In this document: positions 4,621 to 28,778 of the stretch, in pieces
Position numbering within the stretch: the stretch's first letter is position 1
Layout: the number at the start of each line of letters is the position of its first letter
Source of the DNA: an uncultured bacterium
Lineage (GTDB): Bacteria > Actinomycetota > Actinomycetes > S36-B12
Length of the DNA: 55,715 nt
Direction of reading: 5' to 3'
Assembly (NCBI GenBank): GCA_903850745.1
Contig: CAINMH010000047.1
Coordinates: forward strand, 1-55,715
Made by a program: the position numbers and the translations under genes
The notes under the pieces: generated by a model
The model's database searches: none
What the model was told of the DNA's origin: nothing
Seen by the model: the letters and a program-made list of their open reading frames with translations, nothing else

Positions 4621-7607
4621 GCGACCAACAGCGCACAGCCAGCGATGAGGCTCGCGTTGTTCGGTGGGGATGTGCGCACCCCCAAGTTGCAGTGCAGCAT
4701 GTCGCTCATCTCGAATCGATCTGCCCTCTGCCCGACGCGGGTTGGGATGTGTGTGCACAGGCTGCGGACCCCGATCTTGCTGTGTCACGGCTTGCCCAGC
4801 TCTTGGACACAGCTTTCGGCGGAGCAATCGCCGAAGAGTTGCGCTCTGATCCCGAAGTAGGGTCGCGTCTCGTCGCCGTTCTTGGTGTCTCAGAGGCACT
4901 CGCTGACCATCTCCTTCGCCATCCACGTCAGTGGACCGCAATTGCTCACGCTGAGCTCACTCGGCCGGATGCACTGGACCTGCGTGCGGATCTACTCCGA
5001 GCAGTGGGGGCCGATCCCGAGAGCGCTGAGCCGCGGGCGGCCCTGTCGGAAGAGGCGGCTCTTCTTGCATTGCGGATTGCCTATCGCGAGTGTTTGCTAG
5101 GTACGGCCACTCGCGATGTTGCCTTGGGCGCATCGCTGGATGAGGTCGCTGGGGAACTCGCCGATCTTGCCGATGCCGCATTGGCCGCTGGCCTCGCGAT
5201 TGCCCGGAGTACCTTGGCGCCTGATGCAGAGCCCTGCCGCTTCACCGTAATTGGCATGGGTAAGTGCGGTGGACGCGAATTGAACTACGTGAGCGATGTT
5301 GATGTGATCTTTGTGGCCGAACCACTCCCAGGTGGCGATGAATCGGGTGCCATCAAGACCGCAACGCGCCTCGCCACCGGACTCATGCGGGCCTGCAATG
5401 CGGCCACGGTAGAGGGCTCTCTTTGGGAAGTAGATCCGGCGCTTCGTCCCGAGGGGAAGCAAGGGGTTCTCGTGCGCACTCTTGGGTCCCATGTTGACTA
5501 TTACGATCGCTGGGCAAAGACGTGGGAGTTTCAGGCTCTGTTGAAGGCACGGGTCAGTGCGGGTGATGGCGACCTGGGCGATGCGTACCTTGAGGCGATC
5601 TCGCCCATGGTCTGGCTCGCTGCGCAGCGTGAGGGTTTCGTCAATGACGTACAAGCTATGCGCCGCCGGGTTGAGTCGAACATCCCTGCGCAACATGCCG
5701 AACGTCAGTTAAAGCTGGGTCCAGGCGGATTGCGTGATGTGGAATTTTCGGTGCAGCTGCTTCAACTAGTCCATGGACGCAGTGACGTGATGCTCCGTAG
5801 CCCCACGACGCTAGTAGCGCTTGAGGCGTTGGCGACGTGGGGATATGTAGGGCTCGAAGACGCATCGACTCTTGGCGCTGCCTACAGATTCTTGCGAACG
5901 TTGGAACATCGGATTCAGATTTATGGGTTGAAGCGAACTCATGTGGTGCCCGAAACAGAGTCGGACTTGCGCCGGATCGGTCGGTCCATGGGATTTCGTT
6001 CTGACCCGGTTGCTGAATTGACCAAAGAGTGGCGCCGACATTCGCGTGAAGTTCGCCGAATCCACGAGAAACTCTTCTATCGCCCGCTCCTTAACGCGGT
6101 CGCGCGTTTGGGTCCGGGGGAGGCGAGGCTTACTCCCGCGGCGGCTAGGGATCGCCTGCAAGCGCTGGGCTACCTAGATCCTGCTGGGGCAATGCAGCAA
6201 CTAGAGGCTCTCACTAGCGGCGTGAGTAGGCGAGCGGCCATCCAAAGAACATTGCTCCCGGTGTTGCTCGGCTGGTTCGCCGATGCTCCCGATCCGGACG
6301 CAGGTCTGCTGGCATTCCGCAGAGTGAGTGACGCGCTGGGGTCGACACCGTGGTACCTACGTCTACTGCGAGATGAGTCTTCCACCGCAGAACGAATGGC
6401 GAGACTTCTGTCCTCGAGCGCGTTCGCAACGAATCTTCTGCTCAGTGCACCTGAGGCCGTGTCGCTGCTGGCTGATGAGAAGGAGCTGCAGCCGCGATCA
6501 GCTTGGCAGGTACGCACCGAGTGTGAAGCGGCTGCTGGACGAGCAGAGAATTTGCGAGGAGCAGCGGCGGCGGTGCGTGGCGTGCGACGGCGGGAGATGT
6601 TCCGAATTGCAGCCGGGTCGGTTCTCGGGCTCACAGATGTGGAGGCGATTGGGCGCGGACTCAGCGATATCGCAGATGCGTCGATTGCAGCCACTCTTGA
6701 TGCCGCAATACGCGCTGCTGAAGAGGAGCTGGGTCGTGCATTGCCTACCCGCATCGCCATCATTGGTATGGGCCGGCTGGGGGGCGCCGAACTCTCCTTC
6801 GGCAGCGATGCTGACGTCATGTTTGTGCATGATCCACTTCCTGGGATCGGTGACAAAGAAGCGACAGATATTGCTATGCAGGTCGTGGGTGAGCTTCGCA
6901 GGGTCCTGACGGAACCATCAACCGAACCAGCTCTGGAATTCGACGCGGATCTGCGACCAGAGGGCAAAAGTGGCCCGTTGGTGAGGACTCTCGCCTCGTA
7001 TGCGGCGTATTACGAGCGCTGGTCTGCACCGTGGGAGTCACAAGCCTTGGTGCGGGCCCGAGTGGTCGGTGGCGACCTAGATCTTGGTGCGAACTTCATC
7101 GCCATGGTGGACACATTGCGTTGGCCTGCCGATGGGCTTACGGATGAGGCCATTCGAGAGATTCGACGACTAAAGGCGCGAATGGAAGCTGAACGGCTGC
7201 CGCGTGGGGCAGATCCCACTTTGCACACCAAACTCGGCCGCGGGGGCCTCTCGGACGTCGAGTGGACCGCGCAGTTGCTTCAAATGCAGCACGCGCACAA
7301 GATCGCTGAGCTTCGAACGACGAACACACTGGAGGCTTTGCACGGGTGTGTGTCTGGAGGAGTATTGGGCGAAACTGACGCGGCCGCATTATCCAGTGCC
7401 TGGATTTTGGCAACGCGTGTTCGCGACGCCGTCACTCTCGCACGCGGAATCTCCAATGACGTCGTACCCACTGCTGGCCGCGACCTTGGCGGCGTCGCGC
7501 ACCTTCTGGGCTATCTGCCCAGCGAACGTGGGGCACTCGTGGAGGACTACCGTCGCGTGACTCGTCGAGCCCGGGTAGTGATGGATCGCGTGTTCTATGG
7601 CGTCTGA
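4617..7607 (+). CDS. glnE: Bifunctional glutamine-synthetase adenylyltransferase / adenylyl-removing enzyme
   Basis: About 1000 aa with two nucleotidyltransferase repeats (GKCGGRELNYVSDVDVIFV and GRLGGAELSFGSDADVMFV). GTG 4617 forms a GTGA overlap with the glnA2 stop. Confidence 0.9.
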   Translation: MSDQQRTASDEARVVRWGCAHPQVAVQHVAHLESICPLPDAGWDVCAQAADPDLAVSRLAQLLDTAFGGAIAEELRSDPEVGSRLVAVLGVSEALADHLLRHPRQWTAIAHAELTRPDALDLRADLLRAVGADPESAEPRAALSEEAALLALRIAYRECLLGTATRDVALGASLDEVAGELADLADAALAAGLAIARSTLAPDAEPCRFTVIGMGKCGGRELNYVSDVDVIFVAEPLPGGDESGAIKTATRLATGLMRACNAATVEGSLWEVDPALRPEGKQGVLVRTLGSHVDYYDRWAKTWEFQALLKARVSAGDGDLGDAYLEAISPMVWLAAQREGFVNDVQAMRRRVESNIPAQHAERQLKLGPGGLRDVEFSVQLLQLVHGRSDVMLRSPTTLVALEALATWGYVGLEDASTLGAAYRFLRTLEHRIQIYGLKRTHVVPETESDLRRIGRSMGFRSDPVAELTKEWRRHSREVRRIHEKLFYRPLLNAVARLGPGEARLTPAAARDRLQALGYLDPAGAMQQLEALTSGVSRRAAIQRTLLPVLLGWFADAPDPDAGLLAFRRVSDALGSTPWYLRLLRDESSTAERMARLLSSSAFATNLLLSAPEAVSLLADEKELQPRSAWQVRTECEAAAGRAENLRGAAAAVRGVRRREMFRIAAGSVLGLTDVEAIGRGLSDIADASIAATLDAAIRAAEEELGRALPTRIAIIGMGRLGGAELSFGSDADVMFVHDPLPGIGDKEATDIAMQVVGELRRVLTEPSTEPALEFDADLRPEGKSGPLVRTLASYAAYYERWSAPWESQALVRARVVGGDLDLGANFIAMVDTLRWPADGLTDEAIREIRRLKARMEAERLPRGADPTLHTKLGRGGLSDVEWTAQLLQMQHAHKIAELRTTNTLEALHGCVSGGVLGETDAAALSSAWILATRVRDAVTLARGISNDVVPTAGRDLGGVAHLLGYLPSERGALVEDYRRVTRRARVVMDRVFYGV

Positions 7608-8022
7608 AGAGTGGGTCGTCTTGGATGTGGCGGCTTTGCTGGTGCGTATTCAACTGGGGTTATCGGATCGCCGAGGACGTTCCATTGCTCATCAGAAGGA
7701 GGCGCAGCAGGGCCGCTCGCTTCAGCTCATCCTGGCCTGTGGAGCTTGCGGGTCGCCGACTGCTGGCGTCCTCGCGGATGCATCGTTAGCGACATACCTA
7801 CCTGATTCCTTCACAGATGACGCGATACGGCTCTGCGAGTCGGGATGGCTAAGTCGTTTCAGTTCCACAATGGGTGCTTCAGGTGACATCACCATGCCGT
7901 CGATGCCGATTCCGTGCTCTGGTTGTGGAGTGAGTGTGTCGATTGACGGCTCAGCGCTGTATGTGGTGTGGAACGCGGTGCCCCCTGGCGAAACGGTCGC
8001 CATTGCCCTGCAGCGGGCGTAG
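7597..8022 (+). CDS. Hypothetical 141-aa protein with two CxxC pairs (CGAC ... CSGC)
   Basis: The ORF fills the glnE-to-sulfotransferase gap exactly, and its ATG overlaps the glnE stop by 11 nt. Hydrophobic segments look protein-like (WVVLDVAALLVRIQLGL, ALYVVWNAV). An antisense ORF (7722..8003) shares its wobble positions, so coding status is uncertain. Confidence 0.4.
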   Translation: MASEEWVVLDVAALLVRIQLGLSDRRGRSIAHQKEAQQGRSLQLILACGACGSPTAGVLADASLATYLPDSFTDDAIRLCESGWLSRFSSTMGASGDITMPSMPIPCSGCGVSVSIDGSALYVVWNAVPPGETVAIALQRA

Positions 8023-9135
8023 CTATCCTTTTACGGATTTCGAGGCTCGATTGCCACGAGGTGCTCGGCCGATATTTCCCTGGAGCAATTTCATGGCGAT
8101 ATGTGCGCCGACGGCAGCAACCTCATCGGGGTCTAGGGGAGTTTCAGTGGCCTCGTCTTCGTGAACAATCAGTTCATCTAGATTGCCGAAAATCGGCGCT
8201 CCGGTCTGAGCCAGATCGGCAATATCTTCGCGCGCCCACCGTTGGACTCGCTCGAGATCGGCGCTGGGCAGAAGAAGTGGCCGCCCGCGATCCACTCGAT
8301 TAAGGATTCCGGTATCCAAGAGCCTCCGGATCATGCGCTTCACGTCGCGCCTGGAGAAATCGAGTTCGCGAGCGAGATTATTGAAAGCGAGCAGGAAGGT
8401 CGCTTCGGCCTCAGTGGAACCAGTGTTCGCAGCGAGCGGCGCAATTGGGGGTGCAACGACCGGCAACTCGTCGCGGAGGTCACACGCCGTTCGGAATCGT
8501 TCCCATAGCGAATCTCCGGTGCCGCCCACCGGTGGCACAGTGATGACCGAGACGCTTCCCACGCCCACGAACTGCTCCCAGCGACGCACGAGGTTGCCGT
8601 AGGAATATGAACGCCAGAAACGAAGCGTCCTGCGCGCGTTCCACTGATCGGGGCCCAATTCACGTTCGACAGCACGTCGCTCCAGGAAAGCGGCGTAGTC
8701 AGGGGCGTGGGTGTTGCGCAAGTGTTGCTGCCACGATGAGGGGAAAATCCGGCCAATGTCTCGTGCTGTGACGATGACCTGGATCTCGCCAGTGATTCCC
8801 TCGAGGAACATTTCGACAGCCTCTGGGCGGAAACCGCCGAGTGCCTCGGAGGACACGATGCTGACGCCTTCGTGGCGATTAACGGCTCGAATCAGAGCCG
8901 GATGCGTGTCCTCGTCGGTGCCGAATTCGTCCCACACGATGTCGGCACCTTGGTCAGCAAGGTTTTCGATGGCGAACGCAGCGTGGGCGTGATTGTGGTG
9001 ATTGTGGTTACGGTAAGCGAGGGGATAGAGCACCCCATTAATTCCGGGTTCGGCGGCAACCTTTTGCAGGACCCTTTGCAGGTAGGTAGTTCCTGTTTTT
9101 CGGGGGCCGACATGGACAATCACACGGGTGGACAT
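8023..9135 (-). CDS. Sulfotransferase-fold protein (uncharacterised), with a His-rich NHNHHNHAH insert
   Basis: The N-terminal HVGPRKTGTTYLQ resembles the 5'-phosphosulfate-binding loop (PKxGTTxL), and VTARDIGRIFPSSW resembles the 3'-phosphate-binding RDxxxRxxS element. The sequence does not fit Walker A (no GK[ST]). The ATG at 9135 lies inside the hairpin at 9128-9162. Confidence 0.7.
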   Translation of the reverse strand: MSTRVIVHVGPRKTGTTYLQRVLQKVAAEPGINGVLYPLAYRNHNHHNHAHAAFAIENLADQGADIVWDEFGTDEDTHPALIRAVNRHEGVSIVSSEALGGFRPEAVEMFLEGITGEIQVIVTARDIGRIFPSSWQQHLRNTHAPDYAAFLERRAVERELGPDQWNARRTLRFWRSYSYGNLVRRWEQFVGVGSVSVITVPPVGGTGDSLWERFRTACDLRDELPVVAPPIAPLAANTGSTEAEATFLLAFNNLARELDFSRRDVKRMIRRLLDTGILNRVDRGRPLLLPSADLERVQRWAREDIADLAQTGAPIFGNLDELIVHEDEATETPLDPDEVAAVGAHIAMKLLQGNIGRAPRGNRASKSVKG

Positions 9136-9167: not shown

Positions 9168-10592
<1,425 letters not shown>

Positions 10593-14126: not shown

Positions 14127-15376
14127 GTGAGCCCTCCTAGGTGTGTCTTGACTGATTCTGCTACACGCCGACCACTGACCATTGCACCTTGGATAGAAGC
14201 GGTGTCCCTGTGGTCTCCAGCGACGAAGACTCCACCGCCAAGATCGACGGGGAGTCGTCGAGAAAACGGTGGGTCCTGGGCTGGAAGGGCGAAGGGAATC
14301 TCGTATGTGCCGACGAGCTCCCAATCTGCAGCGTTGGTGGCGTACAGCTCCGAAAGGTGACCAAGAATGTCGCTCTGTTTCATGTGTCCGTGTAGACCCA
14401 AAGCGGAGGAGGAGACGAGAACTCGGCCGTGGCTCGCGTACGAAGGTGCTGCGTGGCTCAGCACGACGGAGTTGGTCAGCGGTCCGTGCCTCACGCGTCC
14501 GTCGAGGACGAGAATGGGCTTTCCACGGGTGAGGGATTGTGGTGGAACGTGGGCGAGGTGGTACCACGTGGTCACCGCCCTCGACAGTGGCACGGGAAGG
14601 TCGGGGAGCAGCATCGACACTCCCGGAACATCCGCAGCCACGATGATGGCGCGTGCGCGGTGGCTTCCACTGGTGAGGTGCGCTGTCTGTTTCTCAATAG
14701 ACAAGGCTCGTACGCCCAAAGAGATGGACTCCCGTGGGATTCCATCTGCGATCTGTAGGGGGATCGCCTGCATCCCCCGAGCAGGGACCGAGGGCGTACC
14801 CCGTACGAATGAGCGCAGTACGAGGTCCATGAATCGACGAGATGTTTCAAGTGAATCATCAAGGAAGACGCCAGCTAGGAAGGGTCGAATGAACCTATCG
14901 ATGAGTTCGGCGGACACTCCCGCTGAGCGCAAGGCGTCGTAGGCGTTGACATCTGGGCGCTGCGCGAGGCCGCTTGATGAGGCGACAGCGCATCCCAGGG
15001 CATACGCCGCGAATCGAGACTTAGCGAACTTCGAGCCAACATCTGCTCGAAGTGCTCCGAAAAGGGATCCACCACGGCGCGGGTCGGCGATGACGTACGA
15101 GCCTGAGTCGGTCAGGACCTGCGCCCCAGGAGTGAAGCTACGCAGCGCCAATGCTTCGACATCGAGTGCTCGCTGCACCTCGGGGTAAGCCGGGTTGATG
15201 AGTTGGAAGCCTCGATCAAGGAGCAAGCCGTCAACTTCGTCTGTTCTGATCCGACCACCGACGGCATCAGAGGCCTCGACTACAGCGACGTGGTAACCGG
15301 CTCTGACTAGTTCGCGTGCACACGTCAGGCCGGCTAGACCCGCACCAATGACGAGCGCATCGCTGTCGTAGTCCAC
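14123..15376 (-). CDS. NAD(P)/FAD-dependent oxidoreductase (amine-oxidase/desaturase-like)
   Basis: Contains the N-terminal dinucleotide fold ALVIGAGLAGLTCARELVRAGYHVAVVEASDAVGGRIRT and a C-terminal FVAGDH motif. Confidence 0.8.
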   Translation of the reverse strand: MDYDSDALVIGAGLAGLTCARELVRAGYHVAVVEASDAVGGRIRTDEVDGLLLDRGFQLINPAYPEVQRALDVEALALRSFTPGAQVLTDSGSYVIADPRRGGSLFGALRADVGSKFAKSRFAAYALGCAVASSSGLAQRPDVNAYDALRSAGVSAELIDRFIRPFLAGVFLDDSLETSRRFMDLVLRSFVRGTPSVPARGMQAIPLQIADGIPRESISLGVRALSIEKQTAHLTSGSHRARAIIVAADVPGVSMLLPDLPVPLSRAVTTWYHLAHVPPQSLTRGKPILVLDGRVRHGPLTNSVVLSHAAPSYASHGRVLVSSSALGLHGHMKQSDILGHLSELYATNAADWELVGTYEIPFALPAQDPPFSRRLPVDLGGGVFVAGDHRDTASIQGAMVSGRRVAESVKTHLGGLT

Positions 15377-15377
15377 G

Positions 15378-16268
15378 TCAGGAGGCTAATGCACTTCGGA
15401 TCGCGGTATCGATGTCTGCGTCCTGCCACACAAAGCCACGTGACTCCAGAAGCGCAGGTATAACCCGCTGACTGCCCAGCACGTCTTGAGAGAACTCGCC
15501 GAGGACCGCCTTGAGCGCGAATGCAGGTACGGGGAGAACCGTGGGGCGGCCCAACACGCGCCCCATGGCGGCAGTGACTTCCTTATTGGTGACCGGCGTG
15601 GGCGCAGTGAGATTGACCGGTCCTGACATGGGGTTCTCAAGAAGGTGCACTAGTGCGGCGACTTCATCACGAAGGGAGATGAAAGACCAGTACTGGCTTC
15701 CAGAACCGACTCGTCCGCCAAGACCGGCCTTAAAGATGGGGAACAGTTTCGCCCAGGCGCCGCCGTCACCACTGACCACAAGTCCGGTGCGTGCGAAAGC
15801 TGTCGGAACGCCAGCGTCGATCGCCGCCGCAGCAGACTTTTCCCATTCGCCCACTACGCCAGCCAAGAATCCAGCACCTTGGGGTGCTGACTCATCAACT
15901 GCCCTATCGGCGGTGTCTCCATAGAAGCCGATGGCGGAACCACAGATAAAAGCGACAGCGGGTGTAGGCAAAGATGCGATCGCAGCCGAGATCGTCCGAG
16001 TGCCCTCGACACGAGAGTTCAAGATTTCTTGCTTGTAGGCATCGGTCCACCGGTGATCACCGACTCCGGCGCCGGCGAGATGAAAGACCGCTTGGGTGTC
16101 GACAAAACGAGCCATGTCGACAGTCCCGCGCGCGGGATCCCACTGTGCTTCATCGGGTGCAGCCGGCGCTCGTCGAACCAGTCGCAGAACGCCATGGCCT
16201 CGCTGGCGTAATGCGGTAACTAGGGCTGACCCGATCAGGCCAGTACTGCCCGTGACGGCGATTTTCAT
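15378..16268 (-). CDS. TIGR01777-type SDR/epimerase family oxidoreductase (Rv2216-like)
   Basis: Contains [31 protein letters not shown] overlap with the E2 stop. The position matches that in M. tuberculosis. Confidence 0.8.
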
Positions 16269-17947
16269 GCGGTGTTGAGATCTCCTTCGAATGATCCTTC
16301 TTCAAGACGCTGCTTGATTGCCCCAAGGAAGCGAGCAGCATCGGCGCCATCCACGAGACGGTGGTCGTAGCTCAGCGCGAGGTACGCCATGCTGCGGACG
16401 GCGATGAGGTCATTGCCATTGTCGTCGGCCATGACCACCGCACGTTTCACGATCGCGCCGGTGCCCAGAATCGCCACCTGCGGGAGGTTGATGATTGGCG
16501 TGTCGAATAGCGCTCCGCGGCTACCGGTATTGGTGATGGTGAAGGTGCCACCGCCCAACTCGTCCGGTGACACCTTGTTGGTGCGGGTGCGCTCCGCGAC
16601 ATCAGCAATGCGACGGGCGAGTGCGGCGATGGTGAGATCTTCTGCACCGCGGATCACCGGAACCAAGAGCCCTCGCTCTGTGTCGACGGCGATGCCGAGG
16701 TTGGTGGCATCGTGGTAGGTGATCTCCGTGGAGTCGGCATTGAGTGATGCATTGAGTTGTGGGAAATGGCGCAGTGCCTCGACTGTTGCCTTGGCAAAGA
16801 ACGGCAGAAAAGTGAGCTTGGCGTTTTCACGAGCCGCAAAGCCGCTCTTGGACTTATTACGTAGATTCGACACGCGGGTCATGTCAACCTCGACGACGGT
16901 CGTGAGTTGAGCGCTTGTCTGCAGGGAAGTCACCATGCGTTCCGCGATGACACGACGGAGCCGGCTCATGGGAACGGTAGTTCCACGCAGCGCAGACGCC
17001 ACTGTCGTCGATGCTGAGGTGGCTGCTGATGCTGCCGCGGGAGGCGTTGGGGCAGCCTTAGCCGCTGCTGCAGCGAGAACATCTGATTTGCGGATGCGAC
17101 CGCCAACTCCGGTGCCTACGAGCGCGTTGATGTCGACGCCGTTTTCACTCGCGAGCTTGCGCACTAGGGGAGTGAGGTATGGCTCTTCGACGGAATTGAT
17201 TGGCGTGGGCGCATGCGCAGGCGCAGGTGTGGGCGCAGCGACAACAGGCGCAGGTGCTGGTGTGGGCGCAGCGACAACAGGTGCTGGTGCAGGTGCAGGT
17301 GCAGGTACAGGCGCAGCGACAGCAGGCGCAGCTCCGGGCACTCCGATGATCGCGAGCACGGCTCCGACGGGAACCACGGCGTCCTCAGCGGCGCGGATCT
17401 CGAGCAAAGTTCCGGCAGCGGGAGAAGGAATCTCGGTGTCTACCTTGTCCGTGGAGATTTCGACCAATGGTTCATCTGCCGCGACCTGATCGCCCACCTT
17501 CTTCAGCCACCGCGTGATGGTGCCTTCGGTGACGCTCTCGCCAAGTTGGGGGAGTACGACTTCGGTACCCGTGCTTGGGGCGGCGGGCGCAACAACGGCG
17601 GGGGCCGGTGTAGCTACGGGAGCAGCAACAACGGGTTCTACGACAATTGGTTCTGGAACGACGGGTGCTGGCGCAGGTACAGGTTCGGGTTGCGGAGCCG
17701 AACTCTCATCGGCAGATCCGATGACGGCAAGTTCTCCACCGACGAGAACAACGTCATCCTCCATTGCTCGAATTTCGAGCAGGATGCCACTTGTGGGTGC
17801 GGGAATCTCGGTGTCGACTTTGTCGGTGGACACCTCTACCAAAGGCTCGTCTGCGTTGACGAAATCGCCCACCTTCTTCAGCCAGCGCGTCACAGTGCCC
17901 TCGGTGACGCTCTCGCCAAGTTGAGGCATCGTCACAGAAACCGGCAT
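16265..17947 (-). CDS. sucB: Dihydrolipoamide acyl(succinyl)transferase E2 with two lipoyl domains
   Basis: Has two near-identical lipoyl domains ([12 protein letters not shown] and [12 protein letters not shown]), Ala/Pro linkers and a catalytic [16 protein letters not shown] motif. Confidence 0.9.
17211..17335 (-). repeat. In-frame tandem repeat (about 33-nt period) encoding the Ala/Pro-rich E2 linker
   Basis: GGTGTGGGCGCAGCGACAACAGG occurs at 17226-17248 and 17259-17281, flanked by GGTGCAGGTGCAGGTGCAGGT. It encodes [26 protein letters not shown]. Confidence 0.7.
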
Positions 17948-22052: not shown

Positions 22053-22874
22053 TCAGAGGCGAGCCAACGCCGCTTGGAGTGAGTTGAGCACAAGCATCGG
22101 CGCAATGCCGGATTGGGTGTCGAGATGCAAATCCACGAACGGGTGCAGGTCTAGGCGATCCAATACAAGATGCGCAGCGGGATCGGCAGGGCGTTGTGAA
22201 GCCCACCACCATTCGCGCGAGCGGTACGAAATTCGGTGCGCAGCCAAAGCTGCGGCGAGGGAAGATGTTGAATTCAGAAGCACGGGAGTCCGCCTTGCTG
22301 CGGCAGCCAGCAAAACCCCCGTCATGGCGGCGATGTCGTAGGCACCTACAGCGTCGAGTAGCGCGACCGTGTCACCAAGGTGCTTTCGCGCCAAGCGCAT
22401 AGCGTCGCGTACCGAACCCACCCGAATCATCCATGCCGTGGCATCGAGTTGGCGCTGCGTCGCTGCGGCAGCGTCGGTCGAGGTCAAGAGTGCAACCAAG
22501 GCGAGAGTGCCCGGGGCAAGGAACGCTGGGTCTTGCAGGACAAGGGCGTCGGCGCCTGAATCGACAGCGCGGTCGGCTGCAGCAGCTCCAGCAAAGAGAG
22601 CTGTGAGTGCATCCGCCGAAACATCTAGGACCGTGTAGTGGCTGCTGTCGTCGCGCCAAGAGTCAGCACTCAGGGCAACGACGCTGACAGACTGAGGTTC
22701 TTTCGGTGGCCAGATGCCTTGAACCGAAGCGAACCACTTCACGATGTCACCCACGTGTCCGAGCGACTCTAGGACTGCGACGGTCGAAGTGTCGGCGTAC
22801 TCAGGTGGCGTCACTGTGCTGATCCGCTCGATGAGTGACTCAAGTGGAGTCGAAGCGTCAGACACGGGACACAT
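22053..22874 (-). CDS. Degenerate CobT-like protein (nicotinate-nucleotide:DMB phosphoribosyltransferase fold, catalytic motifs not recognisable)
   Basis: The overall pattern resembles CobT (ALVLQD...LALVALLTS..., DIAAMTGVLLAAA, ...DLHLDTQSGIAPMLVL...). However, QDPAFLAPGT replaces GEMGIGNTT and LHLDTQSG replaces MRLGEGTG. It is only 273 aa and overlaps the S-component stop by 17 nt. It occupies the cobT position of the mycobacterial synteny block. Confidence 0.55.
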   Translation of the reverse strand: MCPVSDASTPLESLIERISTVTPPEYADTSTVAVLESLGHVGDIVKWFASVQGIWPPKEPQSVSVVALSADSWRDDSSHYTVLDVSADALTALFAGAAAADRAVDSGADALVLQDPAFLAPGTLALVALLTSTDAAAATQRQLDATAWMIRVGSVRDAMRLARKHLGDTVALLDAVGAYDIAAMTGVLLAAAARRTPVLLNSTSSLAAALAAHRISYRSREWWWASQRPADPAAHLVLDRLDLHPFVDLHLDTQSGIAPMLVLNSLQAALARL

Positions 22875-23670
22875 CTACCGTTCCGATGGGTTGTGTGTCA
22901 AAGACAGCTCGCCGCCCAGCTCTTCGTAGGACCGCCAACGTGGGCCTCCCCAAAACAGTAATCAGGACGACTGTGAGGATTGCCCGGGGGATATCGAAGG
23001 CGAGCGATGTAGCGATGGAGAACGCCAGCCAGTGCTGCAGATTGATGGCTAGACCCGCTCCAGGAACGAAGGCAATCGCCGTTGCAAGTCCGGTGGTGAA
23101 CGGCCAGATCCACAGATTCATAACAAGACCGTAGGCGTAGCAGGCAAGGCCACCGAAGGCAGCGGTGATGCCGATCTCTCGCCACGAACCGTCGCGGGGT
23201 CCGCGAATGAGGCCAGCGCCTAGGCCCACCCAGGCAGCAGCGATCATCTGAAAGGGCAGCCAAGGGCCGATCCCTCCTGTGATTAAGGCACTAGCACCCA
23301 TTGAAATCGCGCCAAGGCAGAATCCGAATCCCGGGCCTAGCGCTCGTGCCGAGAGAATCAGCACGACCCACATCGGTTCGATTCCGACAGTGCCGGCACC
23401 TAGTGGTCTCAGTACGCAGATCACGGCACTCAGCACACCGAGCATGGCAATGGACTTCGCGTTCATCCCGCCATCAGCCAATTGTGCTAGGACCACTGCA
23501 AGAAGCAGCGGCAGAAATGCAGCGAAGAACCATGGCGCATCTGTGGAATGAGCCATAGCTGCCGAGGATGCAGATGCCAATAATGGCCAGCCAAAGGCCA
23601 TGATTCCGACAACGGAGCACAGCGCTATGGCGACAGTGGATCGCGTTTGCAGTCGAACAGAGCGAGTCAT
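22858..23670 (-). CDS. Polytopic membrane protein, ECF-transporter S-component-like (substrate-capture subunit)
   Basis: 270 aa, about 8-9 predicted TM segments and no soluble domain. ATGA overlap with the ecfA stop. It follows T and A components in one operon. Confidence 0.65.
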   Translation of the reverse strand: MTRSVRLQTRSTVAIALCSVVGIMAFGWPLLASASSAAMAHSTDAPWFFAAFLPLLLAVVLAQLADGGMNAKSIAMLGVLSAVICVLRPLGAGTVGIEPMWVVLILSARALGPGFGFCLGAISMGASALITGGIGPWLPFQMIAAAWVGLGAGLIRGPRDGSWREIGITAAFGGLACYAYGLVMNLWIWPFTTGLATAIAFVPGAGLAINLQHWLAFSIATSLAFDIPRAILTVVLITVLGRPTLAVLRRAGRRAVFDTQPIGTVDVSRV

Positions 23671-25292
23671 CGAACTCCGCCTAAGGCTTGCTCGACCTCA
23701 GCAACGGTGAGCCACTCTTGCGGCGCTAGAACTTTCCAGACCTGCGGCGCAAACAGCGGGGACGCAGCAATGACATCACGTGTTGTCCCGTCCGCAACAA
23801 TCTCGCCGTCGGCAAGAACAATCACCCGGGTGGCCACCTCAGCGACAAGTTCCACGTCGTGGGTGGCGAGCACGACAGCGTGACCGCCCGCAGCAAGTGC
23901 GCGTAGTGCGACGACTAGTCGCGACTTGGTGAGGTAGTCCAGCCCGCGAGTGGGCTCGTCCAGCAACACAAGTGGCGGACGAGCGGCAAGAATGACAGCG
24001 AGCGCGAGTGCGAGTCGCTGACCTTCAGAAAGATCACGAGGGTGCTGCGAGACCGAGACATCAGGGGCAAGCGATCGCAGAATTGTGGCTGTCGTTCCGC
24101 GTGGCGCGCGTGCATCTCGGTCTGAGTCTTGGCACTCCGTGGCGACTGTGTCACGTGACAGCAGATCGCTGGGATCCTGTGGGACTAAGCCAACGCGGGA
24201 GATGAGCTCGGGTCCACGCATATCCGCGGGGTCTCCGCCGGAAACCAGAACTGTGCCTCGCGAACGTTTGTGCAATCCGACGAGAGTGCCCAACAGGGTC
24301 GACTTGCCGGCGCCATTGCGGCCCATGATGGCGAGAATCTCGCCTGGATCGACCGTGACCGTCACGTTATCCAAAGCTGTTTTCGTGCCATACGCGACAC
24401 TGACGGAACGCGCATCAAGAAGTCTTGGTGCCAGTGCGTCGACCGTTGTTCCTGCGGATGGATGACTGTTGTGTGCGGTGCGCAAGCGTTCGCGCAACGG
24501 GTCAGCATTGCGCCGCGCATCACGAACCGACAATGGCAAGGGGTTCCACCCGGCAAGTCTGCCGAGTTGGACCACGGGGGGCGCGACGGAGGCAGTGCGC
24601 ATAATGTCCGCCGCCGTGCCAATTTGAACAGGTGCCCCGTTACCGGGAACATGGATAATTCGATCGGCGTATTGCACCACTCGCTCAAGTCGATGTTCTG
24701 CAAGCACGACAGTTACGCCCAGGTCGTGAACAAGACGCTGAAGTGCGGCTAGAACCTCTTCGGCTGCACCTGGATCTAAGGCGCTGGTGGGTTCGTCTAG
24801 GACGAGGATGCGCGGATGAGTTGTCATCACCGCACCGATTGCGACCCGTTGGCGTTGCCCGCCGGACAGGCTCAAGAGTGAGCGGTCGCGAAGTTCGGCT
24901 AGACCTAAGAGATCGACAATCTCCTCCACTCGCTGTCTCATCACAGATGGAGCCAGACCAAGGCACTCCATGCCGTAGGCGAGCTCGTCTTCGACGTACT
25001 CTGTGACAAATCCGTTCATGGGATCCTGCGGAACAACCCCGACGACATCCGCAAGATCTCGCGGGGGATGCGTTGCCGTGTCGCGCCCATCGACTACGAC
25101 TCGTCCTGAAAGGGTGCCGCCGGAGAAGTGTGGAACTAGACCGTTGATCGCGTGAAGCAGAGTGGTCTTGCCGCTGCCAGTAGGACCTACAACGAGTGCT
25201 AGTTCGCCCTCCTGAATGTGGAGGGTGGTGTGCGCAATGACCGGAATGGCGCTGCCGTCGTATGCGATCGTGACGTCCTCAAACCGGATCAT
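23667..25292 (-). CDS. ecfA: ECF/ABC transporter ATPase, fused EcfA1-EcfA2
   Basis: Has two ABC cassettes: Walker A GPTGSGKTT and GRNGAGKST, signatures LSGGQRQR and LSEGQRLA, and Walker B ILVLDEPT and LVLLDEPT. Confidence 0.9.
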   Translation of the reverse strand: MIRFEDVTIAYDGSAIPVIAHTTLHIQEGELALVVGPTGSGKTTLLHAINGLVPHFSGGTLSGRVVVDGRDTATHPPRDLADVVGVVPQDPMNGFVTEYVEDELAYGMECLGLAPSVMRQRVEEIVDLLGLAELRDRSLLSLSGGQRQRVAIGAVMTTHPRILVLDEPTSALDPGAAEEVLAALQRLVHDLGVTVVLAEHRLERVVQYADRIIHVPGNGAPVQIGTAADIMRTASVAPPVVQLGRLAGWNPLPLSVRDARRNADPLRERLRTAHNSHPSAGTTVDALAPRLLDARSVSVAYGTKTALDNVTVTVDPGEILAIMGRNGAGKSTLLGTLVGLHKRSRGTVLVSGGDPADMRGPELISRVGLVPQDPSDLLSRDTVATECQDSDRDARAPRGTTATILRSLAPDVSVSQHPRDLSEGQRLALALAVILAARPPLVLLDEPTRGLDYLTKSRLVVALRALAAGGHAVVLATHDVELVAEVATRVIVLADGEIVADGTTRDVIAASPLFAPQVWKVLAPQEWLTVAEVEQALGGVR

Positions 25293-26362
25293 TGCCTGCC
25301 TCTATCTGGGGGTAGTGGTGTCAACCATGCGGGAAGCAGGCAAAGCGCCAGGGCGCAGATGGCGATCAGCGGCACCTGTGGCATGGTGAAAATGCTTGGC
25401 CCCTGCATGGTGATTGACGAGGCTGTTGCAATCGCGGCAATTGCACAGACCAAGCCCACGCCCGTTGTCGTCCACTCGGGTGTACGCCACGGGTCGCGGC
25501 GATATACCGTGCGGATGCGAGCGCGACTTGCAATGATGAAAGCCACCACAATCATCGCGATGCTTCCGCTGAGCAACGACACCATCGCCGTCGTGGGGAT
25601 TCTTTCGTCCAGCGCGCTGTACGCCCCGATCGCGGCGCACAGGAGTGCGGCGAGAAATGTGCCACCGATCATTCTGCGTCTCGCGTCGCTGGCGTGGCCC
25701 ATACGTCCATAGCCGCGTGAATCCATGGCGGCTGCCAGATGTAGGGACTTTTCTAGAGCACCCTCCAGGACTGGAACTGCAACTGAACCGAAGCCACGAA
25801 GTCCTCGTGTGTCACGACCGCGCAATCGACGCGCTGTGCGCAGCCGATCAGCATCGCCGACAATCTGGGGCGCGAACGTCAACGCGACAACTACCGCCAC
25901 ACCAGTCTCGTACAGGGCAGCCGGTGTGGCCTTAAGTAGTCGGCTGGGTGACGCGAGTGAATTGGCCGCCCCTACGCAGGCGAGTATCGCGGCCAATCGC
26001 ATGCCGTCGAAGATCAAACTCAGTAGGGCGGGCTCTGTGACTTCCCCTCCGAAACGCACACCCGCGGCCCAGGCCGGCAAAGCTAGTGAGGGGAGGCTGA
26101 ACAAAACCCGGCCACCGTCCGGAGCGCCAAAGGCGATGCCGAGCACTACCCGAATTGCGATAACCCACACACCCAAGATGAGAAACAGCCGGAAGGAACG
26201 ACCCCAAGCCGCGTCGGGTCGGCGGGCTGCGACAACGTATGCCGCCACCGCAACAATGCAACCAAGCACCAAGGGATTGGTTGTCCTACTTGCCATGACA
26301 GCAAGGCCAAGCGCCCACGCCCACCAAGCGAATGGATTCAACCACCGCGGGCGACCCATCAT
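25289..26362 (-). CDS. ecfT: Energy-coupling factor transporter transmembrane (T) component, CbiQ/EcfT family, with an extra C-terminal TM extension
   Basis: Contains coupling-helix motifs ARRLRGRD and AMDSRGYG. The ATG at 26362 gives an ATGA overlap with the upstream stop (longest ORF starts at 26386). About 100 extra residues with TM segments lie at the C-terminus. Confidence 0.8.
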
Positions 26363-27198
26363 CGACGGCCTCGCGAACGTGTCCACGCGAGAACACCCAG
26401 CACGATGATGCCGATGAGCACGACGATGGCAAGGAGTGGTCCTGAACCCGATGAGGGCGAGCTCGAACTTGCTGCTTGGGCGACCTCTTCCGGGGTTACG
26501 GGAATTGACGGGCTCGGTTGGACCGCCTGTGACTGCGGTGCAGCGGGCTCCGGGGACGGTTCGGTTCTTGGCTCCACGGTGGGTTCGATACTTGGCTTAG
26601 TGCTTGGCTCCACGGTGGGTTCGATACTTGGCTCAGTAGTTGGCACAGTGCTTGGCTCAGTATTTGGTTCAACGCTTGGCTCCGTGCTCTGCTCAATTGT
26701 GTCGCGCCCACATCCGGTAGCGGGATACCCGCTGAGACCACATACGAAACCACGCTCGGATCGGATTTCCGTGATGGCCCGCAGTGCATCGAAACCAGTT
26801 GAGCCGTCGGCCACTTCTGCACACGCAACAACCAGATTCGGCGGGGATTCGCCGGCAGGTGCGTCAGCGGTCGTTCCGTAGTCGAGGACCACCGCGATTC
26901 GCAAAATGTCTGCTTGCGGTGCGACGTCGCCACACGCACGGTCATAAACATCCGCAACGTCGACTCGAGGCGGTGTTGTTGCGTCAACGCCAGTCACCGC
27001 GAGGCGCCACCCTTCGATGATCCCCTCATCTGCTGGCCTAAATGCCGGACCAAGCGGAGAAAAACTCCATTCCTGTGTGGTGGAGGTCCAGTAGGTCCAA
27101 TAGCGAAACTCGCTTGCCGTGGCAGGCGCGGCGAGCACTGCGGACGTCAAGACAATCAGACCCCCGCAGTGCAGTGCCAGCGAGCGCGACAAGGTCAT
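26359..27198 (-). CDS. Exported, C-terminally membrane-anchored protein with a globular N-domain and a (T/S)EPS(V/I)EP repeat stalk
   Basis: Has a signal peptide ([28 protein letters not shown]), a domain starting [10 protein letters not shown]...[16 protein letters not shown], a Pro/Glu/Thr stalk, and then [29 protein letters not shown] overlaps at both ends. Confidence 0.75.
26560..26695 (-). repeat. In-frame tandem repeat (36-nt unit, degenerate 18-nt sub-unit) encoding the stalk
   Basis: CTTGGCTCCACGGTGGGTTCGATACTTGGCT is identical at 26567-26597 and 26603-26633, followed by degenerate copies. Confidence 0.8.
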
Positions 27199-28271
27199 AC
27201 GCGTTGGGTCCCCAAAAGTCTTGAGACCAGATTGATTCGCTGTGGCCCGAAGGCTCTCGGTGAGTTGTCCGTGGCACGTGCTACCAGCAACAAGGTTCCG
27301 ATAGCAGCGGGCATGGTGTCGTCCCCGCTGAGTATGTAGTCGTTGACATTGCGAAGGAGCAAGCGGGTTGCTGCCTGCATCGACGCGTTGCCGAAACCTG
27401 CGTTGCGCAGGGCAATGATGGTGAAGGCAGTGGCATTCCAGTCAGGCTGTGTAGCGTCCATCAGCCCAGGGATTGCCCCGTTGTTTCGCGTGAGTGAACT
27501 GACGAGGAACCGCGACATGGCTCCTGCCGCACCCACGTCACGCGAACATTGCGCTGAAGGCGCAGCCTGGGTTTGTGTTTGAGAAAGCGCAGTCAACGGG
27601 CCCGTGAATCCAATGAGTGCTGCGGCAGTACTGAAGCCATCTGGGACTGATTGTTCACTGAAGCCAAGTCCACCGAAGTGGTTCCTGGATACTGAACAGT
27701 CAGCGACGCGATCTCGAATCCATGCTGCGCCGCGCCGAATGGCGGTTCGTAAGGATTTGGAGTCTCCATCGTGTGCGCGAAGCGCTTGCATGACTAGGCC
27801 GGTGGACACTGGGTCTGACGCCAGACCAGCCAGCCATGGCCAACCGCCATCGACTCGCTGAGAGCCCACAAGCCAACGCACTGCTGCGTGGCTGGCCCTG
27901 AACTCACCTACCGCTCCAAGGGCGATCGCTGCTACGGCGGTGGAGTTGGAGTCGGTACCTGTGTACGTCGTCAGGTCGGCGGCTGTGCAGGAACCTGTTC
28001 GGTACGCCATGAACGCACCACTCGCGCATTGTTGCTTTAGGAGCCACGACACTGCCGATTCGGGCGGTTCAACGCCGAATGTCGTCAGACCGATAAGTGC
28101 GTAGGACTGACGGAGAACGCCGTCATACGTGGGGTCCGCTGCCCCGAAAAGCCCGGTGTCCGAATGGCTCGCTGGGGCGGTGGCCGCAATGGCAGGGGCC
28201 GAAGGCACTCCAAAGGCGATGCCACTGGCAACAAGCGCGGCAAGAAAGACATGGCGAAAACGAGTAAACAT
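27195..28271 (-). CDS. Secreted alpha/alpha-toroid protein (prenyltransferase / squalene-cyclase repeat fold)
   Basis: Has a signal peptide ([30 protein letters not shown]) and repeated QxxxGG(W/F) units ([17 protein letters not shown]). AGAGG lies 7 nt upstream of the ATG. It is the first gene after the riboswitch. Confidence 0.75.
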
Positions 28272-28359
28272 GAAGAACCTCTCAATAGCGACCTGAAGAC
28301 GGTACGCCCGGAGGGAGCCAAAGCTCTGTGTCCGAACTCCGCCCCGCAGACCTCGACGG

Positions 28360-28480
28360 GAAGAGCCGCTTGCGTCCGCCAGGTGCTCCGACTTACTGCC
28401 CAGTTAGACACTGAGCGGTTCACGGTTGCGGGTCAGCGCCGGATTTGCACCGGCTTCCCCTGGATATCGAACGCATACGT
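28360..28480 (-). promoter_or_regulatory. Cobalamin (B12) riboswitch aptamer (the leader spans about 28272-28500)
   Basis: The minus strand reads TGCGT-tcgatatcca-GGGGAAGCCGGTGCAAATCCGGCGCTGACCCGCAACCGTGAACC-GCTCAG-tgtctaa-CTGGGC-AGTAAGTCGGAGCACCTGGCGG-ACGCA. This contains the conserved GGGAAGCCGGTGxxAATCCGGCxxxxxCCCGC core, a B12-box-like AGTCGGAGCACCTGGC, and a closing P1 helix (TGCGT/ACGCA, plus-strand 28471-28475 and 28371-28375). Confidence 0.85.
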
Positions 28481-28574
28481 ATGAAGTTGTCCCGACAGCG
28501 AACCACAGCAAGTAGGTGCACGTCAACACGCCTCGCTCGAATGTGACAGGAGATACTGGGCGAAGGAGGTCACT

Positions 28575-28778
28575 ATGGACTGGAATTGGAAATACATCGA
28601 TGCCTCGGGTGCCGAGGTTGTGGGCCCGCTGGGTGATCAGAGGTTCCCGACGCAGGCTGATGCGGAGACCTGGGTCGGCGAGACGTGGCAGGACCTGCTT
28701 GCGGCCGGTGTCGAAGCCGTGACGCTGTATGAGGTCAACCGAGCGGTTTATGGACCCATGGGCTTGCGCCCGGAGTGA
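28575..28778 (+). CDS. Small conserved hypothetical protein (67 aa)
   Basis: A strong SD (AAGGAGG) lies 5 nt upstream of the ATG. The composition is protein-like (MDWNWKYIDASGAEVVG...AVTLYEVNRAVYGPMGL). Confidence 0.65.
   Translation: MDWNWKYIDASGAEVVGPLGDQRFPTQADAETWVGETWQDLLAAGVEAVTLYEVNRAVYGPMGLRPE

Follow-up and report, generated by a model that had tools for sequence, protein, structure and literature searches.

A six-gene operon on the minus strand of the analysed stretch of DNA (the window; 55,715 nucleotides) probably encodes an ECF importer for corrinoids that is under riboswitch control and of the SCO2321-2325 type, and belongs to a widespread actinobacterial cluster already predicted to import B12-type cofactors. 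On our best reading, the importer is of the dedicated (group I) ECF type, and its cargo is cobalamin itself or a corrinoid precursor (cobinamide, for instance). A surface-capture step carried out by the two exported proteins, p1 and p2, is a closer call when taken alone, at even odds or slightly below. The features are as follows.

28361-28517, minus strand: cobalamin riboswitch aptamer (Rfam RF00174)
28272-28360, minus strand: expression platform and leader (direct sequence reading)
27195-28271, minus strand: p1, secreted alpha/alpha-toroid protein, 358 aa (NCBIfam NF053823, AF2, Foldseek)
26359-27198, minus strand: p2, exported SCO2322-family protein, 279 aa (NCBIfam NF040672)
25289-26362, minus strand: p3, EcfT (CbiQ-type transmembrane component), 357 aa (PF02361)
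23667-25292, minus strand: p4, fused EcfA-EcfA' double ATPase, 541 aa (two PF00005 domains)
22858-23670, minus strand: p5, ECF substrate-capture (S) component, 270 aa (PF12822)
22053-22874, minus strand: p6, short catalytically degenerate CobT-like protein, 273 aa (PF02277)

Operon organization and riboswitch control

The six minus-strand open reading frames downstream of the riboswitch, p1-p6, are all present as described in an earlier, sequence-only reading of the window, and the gene identities proposed there proved correct on profile, structure-model and topology evidence. Base-by-base reading confirmed each of the ATGA start/stop overlaps at 27195-27198, 26359-26362, 25289-25292 and 23667-23670, as well as the 17-nt overlap of p5 and p6 (ATGTGTCCCGTGTCTGA, 22858-22874), and these junctions support the claim that p1-p6 form one translationally coupled operon. 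For p3, a GTG start at 26386 was set aside in favor of the ATG at 26362, because the gene call for the orthologue in a close relative, L081, has the same 4-nt overlap. Purifying selection acts on all six genes (dN/dS 0.04-0.22).

The minus-strand leader matched RF00174 over the full model (positions 1-189) with 43.3 bits (gathering score 31.5; E 1.2e-7), a significant result for the Rfam scan by which the cobalamin-riboswitch core noted earlier was to be checked. The leader span of about 28272-28500 given at the time does contain the riboswitch, but the aptamer extends 17 nt past 28500, and 28272-28360 is the expression platform. A family covariance model, R1, whose source alignment includes the window sequence itself, scored 140 bits at 28342-28513. 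Both the aptamer core GGTGCAAATCCGGCGCTGACCCGCAACCGTGA and the B12-box-like AGTCGGAGCACCTGGC are kept across 42 aligned leaders, and the CGTCGAGGT motif immediately 3' of the aptamer is kept in many relatives. A Shine-Dalgarno sequence, GAGAGG (28278-28283), precedes the p1 ATG at 28271 with a 6-nt spacer, and the fold of the entire leader gave z = -0.34. Because we found no intrinsic terminator in the leader, the riboswitch is predicted to act on translation initiation. When B12 is sufficient, it would turn the operon off; at low B12, the leader would permit translation, and the ATGA overlaps would couple all six genes.

The arrangement is not due to chance, as the same layout occurs in dozens of genomes and gene order is almost invariant across 80 related loci. 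Of 81 loci (the 80 related loci plus one close metagenomic relative), 76 carry a riboswitch directly upstream of the toroid gene according to a model built here; two of the five riboswitch-less loci have no upstream sequence. In an Rfam scan of 23 loci, 11 gave matches above the gathering score to RF00174, RF01482 or RF01689. Among loci with enough sequence downstream of p1, the toroid gene is followed by p2 (73/74), EcfT (67/70), the ATPase (60/63) and the S-component (58/63). The survey proposed in the sequence-only reading found homologues of the toroid and anchored proteins to co-occur with ECF genes and the riboswitch.

The ECF core

We next considered the three transporter subunits. The p3 protein scored 28 bits against PF02361 (cutoff 25; residues 20-228) and matched the same-position gene of related loci at E 1e-80 to 1e-107. 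Its C-terminal extension of about 120 aa holds extra TM helices, giving seven TM-like segments in all; SCO2323 is given 8 TMS under TC 3.A.1.32.1 (PMC3924187). Two ABC_tran (PF00005) domains were found in p4 (E 1.2e-55), which scored approximately 291 bits against the ECF_ATPase models TIGR04520/04521. The p5 protein scored 47.8 bits against PF12822 (cutoff 30.7), and its same-position counterparts matched at E 1e-57 to 1e-100 in 58 of 63 assessable loci. By sequence, p5 is the orthologue of SCO2325, the 'CbrT' of TC 3.A.1.32.1. Comparison with all solved S-components, including CbrT of L. delbrueckii, the only characterised B12 S-component, returned no sequence similarity, even with a family profile.

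B12 riboswitches control cobalt transporters as well, and an alternative reading is an importer of Co2+ for B12 synthesis like CbiMNQO, in which p1 and p2 would be metal- or metallophore-binding accessories. The Pfam model matched by p3 is named 'CbiQ, cobalt transport protein', several of the ATPase models matched by p4 bear cobalt-transport names, and the cluster is common in Streptomyces, a B12 producer. We nevertheless regard cobalt import as very unlikely: the Pfam match of p5 is to PF12822 only, not to the CbiM/NikM family, no CbiN-like gene is present, and p6 is the only cob gene in the 55-kb window. In relatives, moreover, the neighbors are the nucleotide-loop and salvage genes cobU-cobT-cobS rather than cobalt-insertion genes, and acI Actinobacteria, which lack the B12 pathway, keep a riboswitch-led ECF module (PMC5301498). 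A corrinoid or B12 precursor, the ligand proposed from the riboswitch in the sequence-only reading, remains plausible, and in the favored corrinoid importer p3 and p4 would power p5.

Relation to described systems

The suggestion that this composition might be undescribed was not borne out, as it is preceded by the SCO2321-2325 orthologues, TCDB 3.A.1.32.1, NCBIfam families, the work of Kang et al. and an operon of L. sakei. The related statement that no experimentally characterised B12 uptake system of this composition was known still holds for the actinobacterial cluster, which carries a prediction only; the L. sakei operon has been studied and was linked to haem.

By sequence, the first five genes of the operon are orthologues of Streptomyces coelicolor SCO2321-SCO2325 (TC 3.A.1.32), a cluster that we take to be the CbrTUV of Rodionov et al. 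2009. NCBIfam already holds an 'SCO2321 family membrane protein' and an 'SCO2322 family protein'. TCDB 3.A.1.32.1, the 'Cobalamin precursor' (B12-P) family, has SCO2323 and SCO2325 as its type entry (PMC3924187). The toroid, the SCO2322-family protein, EcfT, the double ATPase and the S-component occur in the same order, the Streptomyces loci share the upstream riboswitch, and the T, A and S subunits of the window match theirs at E 1e-73 to 1e-209. Unlike the SCO2321 family, however, p1 has no C-terminal anchor (it leaves profile positions 352-405 unmatched), and a coupled CobT-like gene present in the window is absent within 9 kb in the Streptomyces loci. The transport role of SCO2321-SCO2325 is itself a prediction.

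Riboswitch-led ECF modules of freshwater acI Actinobacteria, whose strains lack B12 synthesis, have been described as putative cobalamin transporters (Kang et al. 2017; PMC5301498). Likened by description, they share habitat and phylum with the nearest relatives of the window, the functional inference is the same, and the Nanopelagicales loci examined here contain the full p1-p2-T-A-S cassette. The published account, in contrast, covers the ECF module and riboswitches only and mentions neither the exported pair nor the CobT-like gene (PMC5301498).

The L. sakei operon lsa1836-1840 comprises an exported transcobalamin-alpha-like toroid, a beta-like protein, T, a fused AA' and S, the exported proteins having HHpred matches to the transcobalamin alpha and beta domains; its deletion impaired haem uptake, and its authors proposed capture outside the cell with subsequent transfer to the S-component (Verplaetse et al., bioRxiv 10.1101/864751). 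By description of the architecture, its five parts are those of the window, with the same transcription order suggested by primer design. No other operon with this architecture has been studied by experiment, and it raises the prospect that the window encodes an importer of haem or another tetrapyrrole; ECF haem transport has been reported in S. lugdunensis (PMC7299338). L. sakei is, however, a Firmicute, its paper mentions no riboswitch, and the window's p2 gave no transcobalamin match of the kind obtained by HHpred for the L. sakei beta protein. With cobalamin-riboswitch control kept in 76 of 81 loci, cobU-cobT-cobS adjoining the cluster in relatives and no iron or haem genes observed beside it, we consider a haem cargo highly improbable and retain the corrinoid assignment.

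The experimental anchor for the CbrT prediction is ECF-CbrT of Lactobacillus delbrueckii, likewise of ECF type, which imports cobalamin and cobinamide and whose structure has been solved (Santos et al. 2018; PMC5997447). It differs in being of group II, its ECF module serving other S-components as well, in the make-up of its cluster (nrdJ-cbrS-cbrT-pduO), in having no exported toroid/beta pair described in the paper (PMC5997447), and in its S-component, to which p5 has no detectable sequence similarity.

The CobT-like protein and cobamide salvage

For the final gene, p6, the match to PF02277 (114.5 bits) is confined to the C-terminal part (profile positions 133-316 of 329), and scores against the NCBIfam CobT models fall far under the cutoffs. 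Compared with canonical CobT, p6 is missing the GDMGIGNT loop, approximately 75 active-site residues and the LGEGTG motif. Its dN/dS of 0.16 relative to the L081 orthologue indicates that the gene is maintained. In the window, L081 and L020, translation of a CobT-like gene is coupled to that of the S-component, and the operon of L022 continues into CobU, CobT and CobS plus a short CobT-like gene. At least 11 loci have a canonical, LGEGTG-bearing CobT gene 1-3 kb downstream; no CobT gene was found within 9 kb of the Streptomyces loci, nor any cob gene besides p6 in the 55-kb window.

CblT/CblS provide a precedent for a riboswitch-linked, ECF-type route for alpha-ribazole. In PMC8123684, cblTS are listed under 'DMB uptake'. 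Together with the coupling of the CobT-like gene to the S-component and the canonical cobT and cobS downstream in relatives, this precedent would fit an importer of a lower ligand (DMB or alpha-ribazole) from which CobT-type enzymes complete or remodel cobamides. Such a role has a very low probability in our assessment, since p6 has neither the catalytic nor the phosphate-binding motifs, cobS, cobU and canonical cobT, which would use the precursor, are all absent from the window, and the Streptomyces loci have no nearby CobT gene. A toroid and beta-domain pair also seems better suited to a large than to a small ligand. In a corrinoid importer, p6, as a non-catalytic CobT relative, would probably serve in the cytoplasmic handling of the imported cofactor or of its lower-ligand part.

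The exported proteins p1 and p2

No function assignment for the two exported proteins of the actinobacterial cluster was found in the literature. The p1 protein scored 200.6 bits against NF053823, under the cutoff of 300 (profile positions 3-351 of 405), and is by sequence a divergent SCO2321-family member without the family's C-terminal anchor. Residues 8-26, the signal peptide at its N terminus, are the only hydrophobic segment, and p1 therefore looks soluble, or held by p2. Its AF2 model (pLDDT 88.9) matched drimenyl-PP synthase, squalene-hopene cyclase and C3d in the PDB (E 3e-7 to 1e-4; significance threshold E <= 0.001), with no transcobalamin among the matches listed (50 of 138 Foldseek matches). 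The p2 protein (NF040672, SCO2322_fam; 125.2 bits, cutoff 85) consists of a signal peptide, a beta-rich domain of about 140 aa, a TEPS-rich linker of about 80 aa and a C-terminal TM anchor (255-273, then RSRGRR), and its homologues bear PF28005. For its AF2 model (pLDDT 84) no PDB fold reached significance (best E 1.4), p2 did not match Pfam DUF4430 or Cobalamin_bind, and hhalign against the human transcobalamin beta domain returned a probability of <1%.

In transcobalamin, intrinsic factor and haptocorrin, an alpha6/alpha6 toroid and a small beta domain together clamp cobalamin. The toroid of p1 and the small beta-rich domain of p2, in some relatives on one chain, recall this arrangement, but with no statistically supported p2 match in sequence or fold the likeness is at present an analogy rather than shown homology. 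Bacteroides BtuG and BtuH, with BtuB, are surface high-affinity B12 binders that feed a membrane transporter under riboswitch control; they resemble the pair in concept only, as the folds are unrelated and the setting is an outer membrane with a TonB-dependent transporter.

Export signals on both proteins, with a linker and TM anchor on p2 only, fit surface capture. We infer that p1 and the linker- and helix-tethered beta-rich domain of p2 would form a cell-surface complex that binds scarce corrinoid and passes it to p5 in the membrane. Alternatively, p1 and p2 may stand outside the transport path as co-regulated surface proteins acting in corrinoid storage or sequestration, competition with neighbors, or envelope-related terpene-cyclase-like chemistry. 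Two loci (L019 and L051) have the riboswitch, p1 and p2 but no ECF genes within 9 kb, so the pair is not strictly bound to this transporter, and the homology of the p1 family profile to squalene-hopene cyclase repeats is clear (E 2.8e-28). We judge a separate role unlikely, given that in almost every locus p1 and p2 come ahead of the ECF genes, in the window with 4-nt overlaps, that direct reading found no DxDD cyclase motif in p1, and that p1 is exported to where prenyl diphosphate substrates would be absent.

That p1 and p2 act as partners is supported by natural fusions, in which the toroid comes before the beta-domain (P0063, P0224 and P0232) or after it (P0287). The P0063 fusion gene likewise precedes ECF genes, namely CbiQ, the double ATPase and the ECF S-component. 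Finally, p2/SCO2322 and the C-terminal domain of the toroid fusion proteins are related by circular permutation, a relationship that is new here.

Riboswitch leader and operon architecture

Six minus-strand open reading frames lie downstream of a cobalamin riboswitch and encode, in order, an exported toroid protein (p1), a SCO2322-family protein (p2), EcfT (p3), a fused ATPase (p4), an ECF S-component (p5) and a CobT-like protein (p6). The leader and the first five genes comprise the following features:

28361-28517, minus strand: cobalamin riboswitch aptamer (Rfam RF00174, clan CL00101; 43.3 bits against a gathering score of 31.5, E 1.2e-7)
28272-28360, minus strand: expression platform, between the aptamer and the p1 start
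27195-28271, minus strand: p1, with an N-terminal signal peptide as its only hydrophobic segment
26359-27198, minus strand: p2, with a signal peptide, a beta-rich domain, a linker and a C-terminal membrane helix followed by RSRGRR
25289-26362, minus strand: p3, EcfT/CbiQ (PF02361, 28 bits against a cutoff of 25), with an extra C-terminal membrane region
Minus strand: p4, fused double ABC ATPase with two PF00005 domains
Minus strand: p5, ECF S-component (PF12822, 47.8 bits against a cutoff of 30.7)

The RF00174 scan proposed in the sequence-only reading gave a significant match, above the gathering score and spanning the full covariance model (positions 1-189), so that the cobalamin-riboswitch core claimed for this leader was borne out; the upper limit of 28500 set for it was not, because the match reaches 28517, 17 nt further. 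The aptamer lies in the 5' leader of the operon about 90 nt upstream of the p1 start, and a Shine-Dalgarno sequence, GAGAGG, is found 6 nt ahead of that start. No intrinsic terminator was found in the window leader, which favours a riboswitch acting on translation. The minimum-free-energy fold of the whole leader was no better than those of shuffled sequences (z = -0.34).

Some 55 nt separate the riboswitch 5' end from the start of a small divergent 67-aa open reading frame (MDWNWKYIDASGAEV...; 28575-28778, plus strand; ribosome-binding site GGAGG), and the operon promoter must lie within the short intergenic space between the two. The same gene, without a Pfam match, occupies the matching place (9491-9694) in L081, a close metagenomic relative of the window.

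All gene junctions were checked. ATGA overlaps are present at 27195-27198, 26359-26362, 25289-25292 and 23667-23670, a 17-nt overlap was confirmed at 22858-22874, and the operon is real and located where it had been claimed to be. The genes flanking it are core actinobacterial genes, with glnA, glnE, sucB, lpd, pepA and gcvT on one side and DUF3043, nadA, ctaC/D and qcrCAB on the other. The window as a whole (60% G+C) represents core chromosome from an uncultured actinobacterium of fresh water and also carries nadE and a second glnA; its closest proteins (78-98% identity) come from freshwater metagenomes only, and the best match to p1 in a species-representative genome is about 40% identical.

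Conservation of the cluster and its riboswitch

A scan of species-representative genomes with the p1 family detected no fewer than 587 relatives; the best 80 of these, from Nanopelagicales, other Actinomycetota MAGs, Streptomyces and Kitasatospora, were studied as loci. The six window proteins were searched against these 80 loci, with counts limited to those with enough downstream sequence. The order p1, p2, EcfT, ATPase, S-component proved nearly invariant, with p2 next to p1 in 73 of 74 loci and EcfT, the ATPase and the S-component found in 67/70, 60/63 and 58/63, respectively.

With L081 added as the 81st locus, a core-motif search located a B12-riboswitch core immediately ahead of p1 in 62 of the 81. 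Of 23 loci scanned with Rfam, 11 gave matches at or above the gathering score, as RF00174, RF01482 or RF01689. An alignment of 42 leaders served to build a covariance model, which detected the element ahead of p1 in 76 of the 81 loci (41 of the 76 had fed the model and 35 were independent; two of the five loci without the element have no upstream sequence). Because the element recurs across the related loci in this way, riboswitch control is a stable property of the cluster. The survey for co-occurrence of p1 and p2 homologues, ECF genes and riboswitch thus went in favour of the sequence-only reading, which would have been undermined had homologous operons generally lacked B12 riboswitches.

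L081 matches the window in all six genes and in its flanks, with 78% identity in p1, and all six genes are under purifying selection between the two (dN/dS 0.04-0.22, rough values with synonymous sites near saturation).

Two Streptomyces loci showed further features. In L073, from Streptomyces misionensis, the riboswitch model matches strongly at a second site (15384-15543, plus strand; 83.9 bits), which lies past the ECF genes and some 6.5 kb downstream of the first. L057, from Streptomyces sp. NBC_01340, has an IS605 OrfB/TnpB-type transposase gene (7182-8492, minus strand) about 260 nt from the riboswitch 5' end and encodes an Ntox11 toxin-domain protein (15436-17694, minus strand) about 1 kb downstream of the S-component gene.

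The ECF core and its known relatives

Genes p3 to p5 have the makeup of a dedicated (group I) ECF transporter, in that an EcfT/CbiQ protein, two ATPase domains and an S-component are encoded together with 4-nt gene overlaps. The operon departs from the definition on one point, the absence of an extracytoplasmic solute-binding protein, as two exported proteins are translationally coupled upstream. The CbiQ match of p3 covers residues 20-228, and the extension beyond it (residues about 230-357, some 120 residues) contains three further predicted membrane helices; the Streptomyces orthologue is listed with 8 TMS in TCDB.

Orthology of p3 and p5 to SCO2323 (T) and SCO2325 (S), respectively, is supported by strong matches and by conserved gene order in about 45 Streptomyces and Kitasatospora loci, a set that does not include S. 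coelicolor itself, and the genes next to the T/A/S orthologues fall in the NCBIfam SCO2321 and SCO2322 families. The supplement to Getsin et al. 2013 (PMC3924187) enters SCO2323 and SCO2325 as TCDB 3.A.1.32.1, in the Cobalamin precursor (B12-P) family, with the substrate "cobalamin precursor", and CbrUVT is used as a signature of B12 uptake in reviews and subsystem papers. An operon of Lactobacillus sakei likewise encodes two exported proteins, T, AA' and S (Verplaetse et al., bioRxiv 10.1101/864751) and, like the window, departs from the textbook ECF definition by encoding exported proteins. The sequence-only reading had presented this composition as possibly undescribed. That part does not hold, given the TCDB entry, Kang et al. 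2017 (PMC5301498), who regard riboswitch-led ECF modules of freshwater acI Actinobacteria as putative cobalamin transporters, and the operon of Verplaetse et al.; what stands is a riboswitch-controlled ECF operon with two exported proteins. The window operon is a member of a known, bioinformatically predicted system.

SEED has roles with names like [quoted passage not shown], and the name CbrTUV reportedly goes back to Rodionov et al. 2009. A literature search on SCO2321/SCO2322 returned nothing relevant, and no assigned function was found in the literature for the two exported proteins of the actinobacterial cluster.

ECF-CbrT of L. delbrueckii imports both cobalamin and cobinamide (PMC5997447). 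The window S-component has no detectable similarity to CbrT, and a sequence-level relationship of p5 to any solved S-component was rejected after searches of all PDB chains at E <= 10 with phmmer and a 14-sequence profile found none.

Taken together, we consider it fairly probable that the operon encodes a dedicated ECF importer of cobalamin or cobinamide under riboswitch repression. Haem import is a weaker reading and would draw on the L. sakei operon, deletion of which impaired haem uptake (bioRxiv 10.1101/864751); import of cobalt or of a lower ligand would likewise be weaker explanations of the operon than corrinoid import.

A retained CobT-like protein without catalytic motifs

p6 is a relative of CobT whose alignment to the CobT model (PF02277) is confined to its C-terminal 184 residues, and it scores below the CobT equivalog cutoffs (85.5 against 319.3 bits for TIGR03160 and 106.7 against 306 for NF000996). 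The catalytic-Glu motif LGEG(S/T)G (LGEGTG), the GDMGIGNT phosphate-binding loop and about 75 active-site residues are missing, and LDTQSG and QDPAFLAPGT stand at the places of the motif and the loop. Judged by these sequence features, p6 is probably not an enzyme of the CobT type. A decaying cobT pseudogene was ruled out, because the gene is maintained (dN/dS 0.16), with its frame intact in two lineages.

CobU, CobS and canonical CobT were not found within the 55-kb window. In Mycobacterium tuberculosis, cobT-cobS lie in the slot between DUF3043 and gcvT, and p6 would thus occupy the usual cobT place. Among the related loci, a canonical CobT with LGEGTG is encoded 1-3 kb downstream in at least 11, and short CobT-like paralogues without this motif are present in L009, L016, L020 and L022. 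L022 is a complete actinomycete chromosome of 3.7 Mb, in which CobU, canonical CobT, CobS and the short CobT-like gene come after the S-component gene. The frame directly after the S-component gene there (14364-15764, plus strand) encodes 466 aa, in which CobU (281-457) is preceded by a domain of the metallo-beta-lactamase fold (Lactamase_B_2; residues 45-239), and may represent either a genuine fusion or two genes sharing a reading frame.

The exported proteins p1 and p2

The AF2 model of p1 is an alpha/alpha toroid (pLDDT 88.9), for which Foldseek gave class II terpene cyclases and the complement C3d/TED domain as the best PDB fold matches (E 3e-7 to 1e-4). The p1 family profile matches squalene-hopene cyclase (E 2.8e-28), and no DxDD cyclase motif was seen in the p1 sequence. 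Against the SCO2321 family membrane protein profile (NCBIfam NF053823), p1 scores 200.6 bits, below the cutoff of 300, over profile positions 3-351 of 405, and the C-terminal TM segment that anchors this family is not present. We therefore regard p1, on the strength of this match, as a homologous but divergent, anchor-less SCO2321-family member.

p2 scores above the SCO2322 family cutoff (NCBIfam NF040672; 125.2 bits against 85, profile positions 2-141 of 144), and its homologues carry PF28005. The folded beta-rich domain (AF2 pLDDT 84) is followed by a TEPS-rich linker of about 80 residues. With at least 587 relatives of p1 and more than 3,000 protein clusters in the SCO2322 family, the cluster is very widespread. 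The linker contains imperfect "EPS/EPT" repeats (residues about 168-235) that give spurious matches to trypanosome PARP and Plasmodium circumsporozoite protein, and its length and sequence differ among close relatives.

The two domain types also occur in one chain. The metagenomic protein P0063 (530 aa; 2,467 relatives in a full-library search) consists of a toroid and, after it, a domain with a weak Pfam assignment to SCO2322. Two unknown genes come after its gene, together with genes for CbiQ, a double ATPase and an ECF S-component. Among its relatives, likewise metagenomic, the same toroid-then-beta order is found in P0224 and P0232 and the opposite order in P0287, and the beta domain stands alone with a linker and anchor in P0358 and P0373. 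Because single-chain fusions exist in both orders and the genes are adjacent in nearly all loci, the p1-type and p2-type domains work as one unit.

In its native order, p2 matches P0063 as two segments that are out of sequence, and exchanging its two halves yields one unbroken alignment that spans the junction (E 4e-8). A profile of canonical-order domains and the permuted SCO2322 profile aligned over 107 columns (97.2%, E 4e-11), as opposed to only 39 columns with the native-order profile. These alignments identify p2 as a circular permutant of the C-terminal (beta) domain of P0063. We have seen no description of SCO2322-domain circular permutation in the literature. The SCO2322 domain thus exists in two versions related by circular permutation, and in its fusions with the toroid either order is seen. 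The P0063 toroid also looks permuted relative to p1, as a segment resembling the p1 C-terminus (...DLVARLLGT) precedes the conserved 12-letter motif that begins mature p1.

A putative surface capture complex

The combination of an alpha/alpha toroid with a small beta domain resembles the arrangement of transcobalamin and intrinsic factor, and for the L. sakei exported proteins HHpred matches to the transcobalamin alpha and beta domains were reported by the authors (bioRxiv 10.1101/864751). For p2, a sequence search of the PDB gave no support for transcobalamin, and comparison of its model with PDB folds gave nothing significant (best Foldseek E 1.4, with a method that cannot handle permutations). 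Pfam returned no DUF4430 or Cobalamin_bind match for p2, the fusions or the stand-alone canonical-order homologues, even at relaxed E-values. Local hhalign comparison with the human TC beta domain (reference sequence 100% identical to 5NO0) gave probabilities of 0.3-0.8% in native and permuted order, against a reference profile of two sequences only and hence of poor sensitivity. These comparisons thus gave no support for p2 as the beta domain of a split transcobalamin. p1 had no Cobalamin_bind Pfam match, and transcobalamin was neither among the 50 listed of its 138 significant Foldseek matches nor seen in its sequence matches. The likeness of p1-p2 to transcobalamin is therefore kept as an analogy only.

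p1 and p2 would capture the ligand at the cell surface and then pass it to p5, much as the L. sakei authors argue for extracellular capture followed by hand-over to the S-component (bioRxiv 10.1101/864751). That the pair forms a surface capture complex feeding p5 is reasonable to infer from topology, operon position and coupling, the fusions and the L. sakei precedent, and we place it close to evenly balanced. A bolder and more tentative proposal, which we think somewhat doubtful, is that p1 and p2 make up an extracellular receptor for corrinoids in two pieces, which would be the bacterial equivalent, and possibly a remote homologue, of transcobalamin/intrinsic factor and would deliver B12 to the ECF S-component, with p2 as a circularly permuted beta domain and the dead CobT-like protein as cytoplasmic acceptor for the imported cofactor. 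If true, this would describe a binding-protein-assisted ECF transporter used by Streptomyces and abundant freshwater Actinobacteria.

The cluster is the standing candidate for B12 acquisition by Gram-positive Actinobacteria, including Streptomyces and the lake-dominating acI/Nanopelagicales lineages that are unable to make B12. Should the exported pair serve to capture corrinoids, the textbook view of ECF transporters as systems that operate without extracytoplasmic binding proteins would have to be qualified, and a bacterial analogue of the mammalian B12 carrier proteins would be indicated. The putative capture role of the SCO2321/SCO2322 pair, the SCO2322 permutation and the retained, catalytically dead CobT-like protein are the points that merit attention.

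A separate, non-transport role of p1 and p2 is a less probable alternative, for which two loci speak. In L051 (8475-12364, plus strand) and L019 (8750-14657, plus strand), the riboswitch, toroid and SCO2322 genes are followed by canonical CobT, and ECF genes are absent within 9 kb, so that the exported pair can be separated from this ECF transporter.
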